A stretch of DNA of 64,000 bases from an uncultured Eubacteriales bacterium (GTDB lineage: Bacteria; Bacillota; Clostridia; Oscillospirales; CAG-272). Below are positions 2,100-3,933 of this stretch, piece after piece (the first letter of the stretch is position 1; the number at the start of each line of letters is the position of its first letter). The stretch spans positions 13,504 through 77,503 of the forward strand of contig CAJKPX010000005.1 of NCBI GenBank assembly GCA_905201895.1, written 5' to 3'. A program made the position numbers and the translations under genes. A model generated the notes under the pieces. That model saw nothing but the letters and a program-made list of their open reading frames with translations, made no database searches and had not been told where the DNA came from.

Positions 2100-2141
2100 T
2101 TGGACACATCAAACGAGCAAATGCTCAAATGGTGTGTCCAA
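2100..2141 (-). terminator. Hairpin closing the trmFO-side transcription unit; related in sequence to the hairpin at 1322-1361
   Basis: ttggacacatcaaa...atggtgtgtccaa. On the minus strand it is followed by tcttttcgg. Confidence 0.45.
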
Positions 2142-2186: not shown

Positions 2187-2429
2187 TCAGTATGCCCGGA
2201 CCTCAAAGATCACGGCATCGCGATGTCCGTTTGTTTGGTGAACGTTTATTTCGACGCGGTCGCAGAGCGTCTTTTCAAAGCGGAGGACGTTGAGACGCTG
2301 GTGATTATCGCGCACCTCGATCGTTTTCACAACCTTAGCCGAGGCAGAAGAGGTTGAACTCGGTTTTAAGAGAGCCCTTTTTCGCCATACTGCAGGAAAA
2401 TTTCTTGTCATATTGGTATATAACTGCAA
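2187..2429 (-). CDS. 80-aa ORF of uncertain status; its 3' 49 codons may be a severed trmFO C-terminal tail
   Basis: TTG start at 2429 (AAGGA lies 5 nt upstream) or ATG at 2411, both inside the inverted-repeat cassette. GC3 is about 1/3 in 2336-2429 and about 2/3 in 2187-2335. Confidence 0.3.
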   Translation of the reverse strand: MQLYTNMTRNFPAVWRKRALLKPSSTSSASAKVVKTIEVRDNHQRLNVLRFEKTLCDRVEINVHQTNGHRDAVIFEVRAY

Positions 2430-2614
2430 AATTTTCCTTTGCCTGACAAAAAATGGCTTCTCTTAAAACTTCGCAGAACCCCAGAGCCTGAAGTTTTATG
2501 ATGATTTTGGTGTTAGCCGAGCGCAGCAAGGTTGATACCTTGCAAGAGAGGAAAACGCCGAAAGCGCTAAAAATTCAGGCTTTGGGGCGGGTTCAACCTC
2601 TTCTGCCTCGGCTA
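2336..2614. mobile_element. MITE-like inverted-repeat cassette (alternatives: invertible segment or structured RNA)
   Basis: Perfect 24-nt inverted repeat tagccgaggcagaagaggttgaac at 2336-2359, with its reverse complement at 2591-2614. Outer TA dinucleotides flank it. Two internal arms pair at 2364-2376/2455-2468 and 2479-2492/2574-2587. Confidence 0.5.
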
Positions 2615-3933
2615 CCCGTGATCTGATCAATCAGGGCAAGTGCGCGCTCTGCCAGCTTTTCGTTCTTTGCCGTTTTGCCACCCTTGACGCGATAGCCGAG
2701 CGGGCGAACGATACCGAAATTGGCATTCATCGGCGCAAAGGGTCCCACGCCGCCGCGGCTGACGTATGCCGCCATCGCGCCGATCATGGTGTCCTCGGGG
2801 TAAATACAAGCATCCTCGCCCTTTGCACGACGCGCCGCGTTGACACCCGCAACAAGTCCGCTGCCCGCAGACTCCACGTAGCCCTCCACGCCGGTCATCT
2901 GTCCTGCGAAAAAGACGTTTGGACGGCTCACCATCGAATAGTCAGCTCCGAGAAGCCCGGGAGAATTGAGATAAGTGTTTCGGTGCATCACACCGTAGCG
3001 CAAAAACTCGGCGTTCTCCAGCCCCGGAATCATGCGGAACACGCGCCGCTGCTCGGGAAAGGTGAGATGGGTCTGGAAGCCGACCAGATTGAACATGGTT
3101 GCCTCCACGTTCTCCTTTCGGAGCTGCACCACGGCATACGCCTCCTCGCCCACACGCGGGTCGATCAAACCAACCGGCTTGAGCGGTCCGTAGCGCAGGG
3201 TATCGTAGCCGCGACGCGCCATGACCTCAACCGGCATACAGCCCTCAAAAACCTTGAGCGACTTCTGACTTTCGCGGTCAAAATCCTTGAGCTCTGCCTC
3301 CTCGGCAGAGAGCAGCGCCTCATAGAAGGCGTCGTACTGCTCCTTCGTCATCGGGCAGTTGATATAGTCGGCATCGCCCTTGTTGTAGCGCGATGCGAAA
3401 TAGGCAACGTCCATATTGACCGTAGAAAAATCAACGATCGGTGCCGCCGCATCAAAGAAATGCAGACCCTCGCAGCCCAGATCGCGGCGGATATACTCTG
3501 CCATCGCATCCGAGGTCAAGGGGCCCGTGGCGATTACGGTGACGGCATCGTCAAGTACACGGTCTGCTTCCGCCTCAACAACCTCAATGAGGGGATGAGC
3601 GGTGATCTTGTCGGTAATATATTGCGAGAATTTCAAGCGGTCAACTGCCAGTGCAGAGCCTGCGGGAACGCGGGTGGCGTCTGCCGCCTCCATGATCAAC
3701 GACCCAAGTCGGCGCATCTCCTCCTTGAGGAGACCTACCGCATTTGCGGTGCTGTCGGAGCGCAGCGAATTGGAGCAGACCAGCTCGGCAAAGGTGGGCA
3801 CATGATGCGCGGGCGTGTATTTCTGTGGCTTCATTTCATAGAGCCGAACCTGCACGCCGCGCTCTGCCGCCTGCCATGCTGCCTCACATCCCGCAAGCCC
3901 CGCACCAAAGATATGAACGGTTGGCATGCTCAT
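2593..3933 (-). CDS. trmFO: Methylenetetrahydrofolate--tRNA-(uracil-5-)-methyltransferase TrmFO (Gid)
   Basis: N-terminal FAD motif [16 protein letters not shown] and GidA-like core. It sits in the conserved topA-trmFO position with a 4-nt overlap with topA. Confidence 0.93.

Follow-up and report, generated by a model that had tools for sequence, protein, structure and literature searches.

The 279-bp inverted-repeat cassette at the end of trmFO is very probably a non-autonomous MITE, comprising a 275-bp core, terminal inverted repeats of 27 nt and a duplicated TA. A MITE-like element targeting TA had been proposed in the initial annotation, and the proposal was borne out by multiple copies at unrelated loci, by filled and empty alleles of one site, by the TA at every element end and by a net gain of 277 bp. 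The window (the whole 64-kb stretch of DNA that was analysed) contained a single copy. Overall, this is an ordinary insertion of a mobile repeat whose family is undescribed but of known type; the family comes from uncultured gut Clostridia, where such repeats have hardly been catalogued.

Features and predicted folding of the element

The features of the locus are given below in window coordinates.

2100..2141, minus strand: terminator-like hairpin after the stop of gene X, sharing a 12-mer with the hairpin at 1314-1364
2187..2335, minus strand: last 49 codons and stop of gene X, FAD-dependent oxidoreductase family (43 homologues, PF12831, continuity with L015)
2336..2614, no strand: complete copy of the putative MITE, 279 bp, 44.8% GC against 53.6% for the window
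2336..2362, plus strand: terminal inverted repeat, "side B" end, TAGCCGAGGCAGAAGAGGTTGAACTCG; in this copy T2360 takes the place of C
2336..2337, no strand: TA, left copy of the putative target-site duplication, based on gap-free virtual excisions with one TA
2363..2469, no strand: hairpin B, internal imperfect palindrome (repeat search and predicted fold)
2479..2587, no strand: hairpin A, internal imperfect palindrome (repeat search and predicted fold)
2588..2614, minus strand: terminal inverted repeat, "side A" end; in the trmFO reading it encodes SRGRRG and TGA
2613..2614, no strand: TA, right copy of the putative target-site duplication, on the same basis as the left TA
2593..3933, minus strand: trmFO (PF01134, E = 1.9e-101), its native variable tail replaced by SRGRRG*

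The terminal arms (2336-2362 and 2588-2614) were paired over 27 nt with one mismatch in the repeat search. The perfect 24-mer of the terminal repeat, described earlier at 2336-2359 and 2591-2614, was present at these two places only in the 64-kb window, against 0.00 occurrences expected from shuffles. The inner arms were likewise real and a three-way junction was predicted for them, but they were longer than had been claimed, with 20 nt in each pair (2363-2382/2450-2469, 85%; 2479-2498/2568-2587, 90%). The two internal hairpins spanned approximately 108 nt each. The plus strand of the element was predicted to fold into the three-way junction with an energy of -138.6 kcal/mol (z = -12.9), and the same junction was predicted for the minus strand with -136.6 kcal/mol (z = -12.1). 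Both strands folded equally well, so nothing favoured a plus-strand RNA. The U.G pair that had been read as a pointer to such an RNA was a polymorphism between copies: position 2360 was T in the window and C in the copies of L018, L022 and L028, which restored a perfect 27-nt repeat.

The ORFs of the element (42-64 aa) had no Pfam match. A search of the element against Rfam at a permissive threshold gave a best E value of 0.97, with all matches far below the gathering scores. Neither an IHF site nor a strong promoter was apparent in the element, and its best promoter-like match was weak (9/12). Read inward, each end of the element gave TAG at once in one frame; in a second frame, the six codons SRGRRG were followed by a stop.

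Copies at other loci and the filled and empty site

The dispersal of the element was evaluated with a 20-mer of the terminal repeat, the first base of which lay 3 nt inward of the element end. Two collections were scanned, species-representative genomes and metagenome contigs. The former gave one true match among eight (L010), which was a one-armed fragment of 78 nt in a Clostridia MAG from roe deer, where it followed a GH39 gene at a distance of 7 nt, and the latter gave 10 true matches among 19. The other matches (7 of 8 in genomes, 9 of 19 in metagenomes) were rejected as chance similarities of 20-22 nt with no wider similarity, for example in release-factor genes. A complete copy, 99.6% identical to the window copy, was found between mgsA and cysK (L029 7841-8119). 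Eight matches were contig termini of ERZ780157, each with a distinct flank and with coverage mostly of about 6.5-7.8x (range 4.4-10.5x); at least five copies were present in this assembly alone. L012 supplied a further element end among the metagenome matches. The search for extra copies, by which the MITE-like call could be checked, thus recovered at least 12 unrelated flanks adjoining near-identical copies or copy ends across the other assemblies.

The genes flanking the copies included pgk, plsX, a glutaminase-A-like gene, a glycosyl/pyruvyl transferase gene and a VanZ-Metallophos gene. The copies showed no fixed orientation with respect to adjacent genes, and some lay within the ends of coding sequences or in the remnant of a pseudogene. 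They were 96-100% identical to one another, and no diverged copy was detected by nhmmer in the 268 kb of locus sequence examined. In the species of the window, the L002 contig, which carries the trmFO side, ended 146 nt into the element. Two contigs with the other flank ended 127 nt (L040, from the same sample as L002, k = 127) and 41 nt (L041) into it. Contigs that end in the repeat with different flanks indicate a multi-copy element, also in the species of the window.

Several minor features were observed at these loci. L001 6314-6416 held a 103-bp internal-deletion form, the interior of which was lost between two TCAACCT heptamers. The 10-mer GGTCTACCGT occurred only twice in 30 loci (about 190 kb), at L010 1575-1584 and L029 7831-7840, both abutting the element; it was situated outside the side-A end in L029 and right after the truncated 78-nt copy in L010. 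In the public metagenome contig L032, positions 1-41 held an Illumina adapter (ACACTCTTTCCCTACACGACGCTCTTCCGATCT) fused 3 nt beyond the element end seen in sister contigs; this start at the repeat boundary is an artefact of the library or of the assembly.

The mgsA-cysK locus was compared among relatives found by a search with the CysK of L029. In L031, the cysK DNA of which was 97.4% identical to that of L029, the element was absent from the mgsA-cysK site, and the empty site sought as a check on the earlier call was thus found with a difference of 277 bp. The two loci were aligned without gaps after 277 bp had been removed and one TA kept, and more than 200 nt on each side of the insertion point were essentially identical. 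The net gain of 277 bp (279 minus 2 bp) agrees with the duplication of a 2-bp target. At the site, the empty allele has TC in place of TA, so the pre-insertion sequence is not seen directly in it. Four mismatches were also noted within 9 nt left of the junction between L029 7831-7842 and L031 213-224 (CTACCGTTA vs TTCCCGATC). A second virtual excision, in which the L015 flank, one TA and the left flank of the window were joined, was gap-free and in frame with L038/L039, which is an independent second pointer to a 2-bp duplication. Furthermore, TA preceded every recovered element end although it lay outside the search pattern.

In L033 and L034 the position of the element between mgsA and cysK and its orientation were those of L029, although their cysK was only 90.3% identical (third positions 78%). 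In the regions compared (L033 1-75 and L034 1-108, against L029), the element bases present (54 and 87, respectively) and a 21-nt flank were 100% identical to L029. This identity is odd for an old, neutral insertion; conservation, transfer or a renewed insertion into a hot spot could account for it. In cysK lineages further away (L035-L037), the intergenic regions differed and no further empty site was obtained.

Proposed mobility, known relatives and alternative readings

The element encodes nothing and would be moved in trans by a transposase made elsewhere. Such a transposase would bind both 27-nt terminal repeats and integrate the element at TA, with duplication of the TA. The target preference, taken from few sites, would be roughly (T/A)ACC-N1-2-TA-CC(C/G). 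The complete sites were CAACCT-TA-CCGTCG and CTACCGT-TA-CCCGAC, and a third site (CTACCC-TA-CCCGTG) was inferred; the single flanks were CTACCG, TGACCG, TA-CCCGTT, TA-CCCATA and TA-CCGTAA. From its TA target and 2-bp net duplication, the element may belong to the IS630/Tc1-mariner-derived group. The stops in two frames at each end mean that insertions in the last codons of a gene only swap a short tail and are tolerated. Copies at gene 3' ends were found at trmFO, at gene X, at the VanZ-Metallophos gene of L030, where the stop codon is the TAG of the element, and in L010, 7 nt after the stop.

The autonomous partner was sought in several collections. No locus with two arms approximately 1-2 kb apart was found in the genome or metagenome scans, and plasmids, phages and viral contigs scanned with the element or with internal 24-25-mers gave no match. 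No transposase or recombinase was present among the 30 window ORFs scanned, which were core genes (the dcw cluster, arg genes and others).

Generic descriptions of MITEs refer to size, terminal repeats, direct repeats, AT-richness, copy number and structured transcripts (PMC10969869, PMC2229807). The element was 279 bp long (below 500 bp), had no Pfam match in its ORFs, carried terminal repeats and occurred at multiple unrelated loci. It was also AT-richer than its host and showed a target duplication with a filled and an empty site, the empty allele reading TC. Some features spoke against a plain MITE. A three-way junction with two long palindromes is not the usual single-hairpin shape of a MITE, only one copy was present in the 64-kb window, and the scans yielded no autonomous partner.

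The closest likeness in design was examined among four known families. The Correia elements of Neisseria (CREE/NEMIS) are also non-coding, with terminal repeats of about 26 nt, TA at both ends and many near-identical copies next to or within gene ends, and co-transcribed copies fold into long hairpins cleavable by RNase III (PMC10969869, PMC2229807). They differ in being about 100-200 bp long with one hairpin, whereas the present element has 279 bp and two extra internal palindromes and its host is an uncultured gut Clostridia lineage. The terminal repeats of the Correia elements are presumably unrelated to those described here. RUP of Streptococcus pneumoniae is a Firmicutes MITE that inserts at TA, is mobilised in trans, putatively by IS630-Spn1, and is often located in pseudogenes and repeats (PMC2229807, PMC10969869). 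In contrast to the present element, RUP is 107 bp long and shares its terminal repeats with a known member of the IS630 family; the scans made here gave no insertion sequence with corresponding ends. QMITE1 of Coxiella burnetii resembles the element in its size of 300-400 bp, its short direct repeats of 2-3 nt, its overlap with ORFs and its conservation between strains (PMC5896051). The direct repeats of QMITE1 vary, whereas the TA is constant here, and QMITE1 carries sigma-70 promoters and yields sRNAs. The Rickettsia palindromic elements are likewise palindromic repeats in coding sequences that alter protein ends (PMC10969869). They are read through in frame and add a peptide, whereas the present element ends the host ORF in two of the three frames.

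Three other readings of the element were weighed. The first, which is rather unlikely, is that the element may be a sequence-specific and actively maintained mobile module, not a passively decaying MITE. The identical site and orientation at mgsA-cysK, together with 100% identity of the element bases in lineages diverged by about 10%, leave room for such a module, as do the apparent tandem (T/A)ACC...TACC target preference, the three-way junction and the lack of a recognised transposase. If this were true, the element could be mobilised by an unrecognised recombinase, possibly non-DDE or guided by RNA or structure, or it could be a selected cis-acting RNA or DNA structure.

The second reading, a structured RNA selected for its function (a target of RNase III, a stabiliser of mRNA 3' ends or a repeated small RNA gene), is improbable. 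The predicted structure was very strong (z about -12 to -13), 87 nt were completely conserved between lineages with only 78% identity at cysK third positions, and co-transcribed Correia elements are known substrates of RNase III (PMC10969869). Against these points, the equal folding of both strands is what a DNA palindrome is expected to give, the Rfam search was negative, and the two substitutions in the terminal arms (T2360 and an A in the L029 arm) were uncompensated. The copies moreover lay in either orientation, in coding ends and in a pseudogene remnant, and effects at the RNA level may be a by-product of a MITE instead of a rival origin. The structured RNA that the initial annotation had kept as an alternative was therefore disfavoured by the uncompensated arm changes, by Rfam and by the equal strands. 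Only the complete identity across lineages diverged by about 10% still speaks for it or for site-specific re-insertion.

The third reading, also raised earlier, is a site-specific inverton, in which the 225-bp interior, bounded by the 27-nt repeats, would be turned round by a recombinase and the expression of neighbouring genes would thereby be switched. Perfect inverted repeats of 24-27 nt about 225 bp apart are typical of invertons, and a single invertase can act on a family of invertons whose repeats are common to several loci. This reading is very improbable, because the trmFO locus (window, L001 and L002) and the cysK locus (L029, L033 and L034) each showed a single orientation in three independent assemblies, and because the L031 allele lacked the whole cassette, a 277-bp difference that inversion does not predict. 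The 30 window ORFs contained no recombinase, and the promoter-like match within the element was weak.

The trmFO and gene X flanks and their junction

As had been claimed at the outset, the right repeat encodes the end of trmFO and donates its stop, with the last six codons and the stop (SRGRRG*) inside the right arm. In a comparison with the 120 closest homologues, the TrmFO of the window was the only one with an SRGRRG terminus. These homologues were 432-455 aa long and had variable tails of 7-24 residues after the ...LAERAL helix. The same TrmFO protein was encoded in two other assemblies of the species, L001 and L002 (DNA 99.95-100% identical). Neither the exact 446-aa TrmFO nor a 150-aa version of the downstream membrane protein was on record, whereas versions of 444 aa and 177 aa, respectively, were. 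At this site the element cost trmFO about 11 non-conserved codons at its end, and the catalytic part stayed intact. The consequence for TrmFO is probably small, as only the non-conserved tail was replaced.

It had also been noted that the removal of 277 bp joins the trmFO frame to KVVKTIEV...RAY*. The phase match was real and 49 codons stayed open, but no lost extension of TrmFO lay behind it. An ancestral trmFO with a 49-residue KVVKTIEV... extension, split by the element, is practically negligible as an explanation. Its only support was the matching frames after the excision. None of the 120 closest homologues exceeded 455 aa or carried the tail (0/120), and the virtual fusion would have a tail of 57 residues after the ...LAERAL helix. 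The tail instead showed homology to the C-terminal end of PF12831 oxidoreductases, with E values as low as 4e-15, and continued the L015 ORF codon for codon, and the trmFO-element-gene X junction was never seen in other assemblies of the species. The proposed search of TrmFO orthologues for an extension of about 49 aa was hence negative in the 120 closest, with the tail belonging to proteins of the PF12831 family. The element was also not the sole source of start codons for the 2187-2429 ORF, as had been stated, because in-frame GTG codons exist outside it.

The identity of the left flank was explored with the 49-aa tail. A word-indexed protein search with this tail found nothing, and an exhaustive HMMER search returned 43 proteins in which the match was always at the C-terminus. 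The full-length relatives P0277 (595 aa) and P0283 (628 aa) matched PF12831 with E values of 5e-86 and 8e-89, respectively. In L015, the ORF running into the element ended in ...PAELIRDYTVSLIRDG-SRGRRG*. By tblastn, residues 2-70 of P0244 matched L015 and residues 73-128 matched window 2339-2172, and residues 410-571 of P0283 matched L015 and residues 574-624 matched the window. At the DNA level, the join of L015 and the window read ...GAC GGT AAG GTT..., against ...GAT GGT GAG GTG... in the uninterrupted L038/L039. From these comparisons, window 2187-2335 is the 3' end of a separate gene, gene X, which is interrupted by a copy of the element and is not part of trmFO. The insertion codons were ACG GGT A.. 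in trmFO and GAC GGT AAG in gene X. The in-frame fusion of trmFO and gene X arises because the insertions into both genes fell at GG|TA with an identical codon phase, which has a chance of 1 in 3, and because the two copies were joined. A repeat can in this way mimic a split gene, with same-phase insertions joined through one copy giving an ORF that is apparently restorable.

Two further observations concern the gene X family. In L015 4194-5051, gene X was already a 5'-truncated remnant in which only about the last 170 codons were homologous to the family, and the fragment adjoining it is presumably, judged by eye, the HTH domain of an AraC-type regulator. The top-scoring match to the 49-aa tail, P0241 (528 aa, about nine tandem repeats, 35% identity), looks like a repetitive-sequence artefact and not like a family member.

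Among the assemblies on record, the junction of trmFO, element and gene X occurred in the window only; two of the other contigs showed a join to a Metallophos gene and all others broke. The three assemblies of the species (window, L001 and L002) thus gave three different outcomes at this spot. In L001, trmFO was followed by the 103-bp deletion form and then by a convergent Metallophos gene, which constituted a third flank. This flank was rejected as the native end of trmFO, which would run antisense into the convergent gene. In L003, the nearest relative without the element (TrmFO 88% identical), plsX was located 39 nt after trmFO. In L022 of ERZ780157, an element end lay 69 nt upstream of plsX, the product of which was 85.6% identical to the PlsX of L003. 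Read in the trmFO phase, the L022 flank gave G-RVDAPPEETPI*, a tail of normal length and character. We infer from these flanks that the native locus would be ordered trmFO-element-plsX.

The window accordingly brings together two different insertions through one copy of the element, with trmFO flanking the first and the far side of the second on its other end. The join is probably an assembly mis-join across the 279-bp repeat, which is the more probable course than recombination, since two different non-native partners in near-identical strains make mis-joins more likely. Alternatively, an identical junction would result if inverted copies had undergone homologous recombination. The element is a breakpoint for short-read assemblies of these genomes. 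Between the window and L002 plus L040 (sample ERZ916488), one base differed in 8.9 kb. This base was A2422, inside the element (A in the window, G at position 41 of L040), and it is compatible with the repeat interior of the window being a consensus or mis-joined. At position 1 of L043, which is the 9-kb contig of L002, a break was also seen at this other end between an NTP-transferase gene and ftsZ (about window 11,490), where the window and L042 were continuous.

Beside the element, a pair of terminator-like hairpins (1314-1364 and 2098-2143) flanked the gene for a 177-aa membrane protein. They had in common the 12-mer GGACACATCAAA, which was found twice in the window against 0.34 expected. 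Beyond the start of the window, L040 3562-3612 held a 51-nt copy of the hairpin at 1314-1364 with 98% identity. These hairpins may represent a second small family of repeated hairpins.
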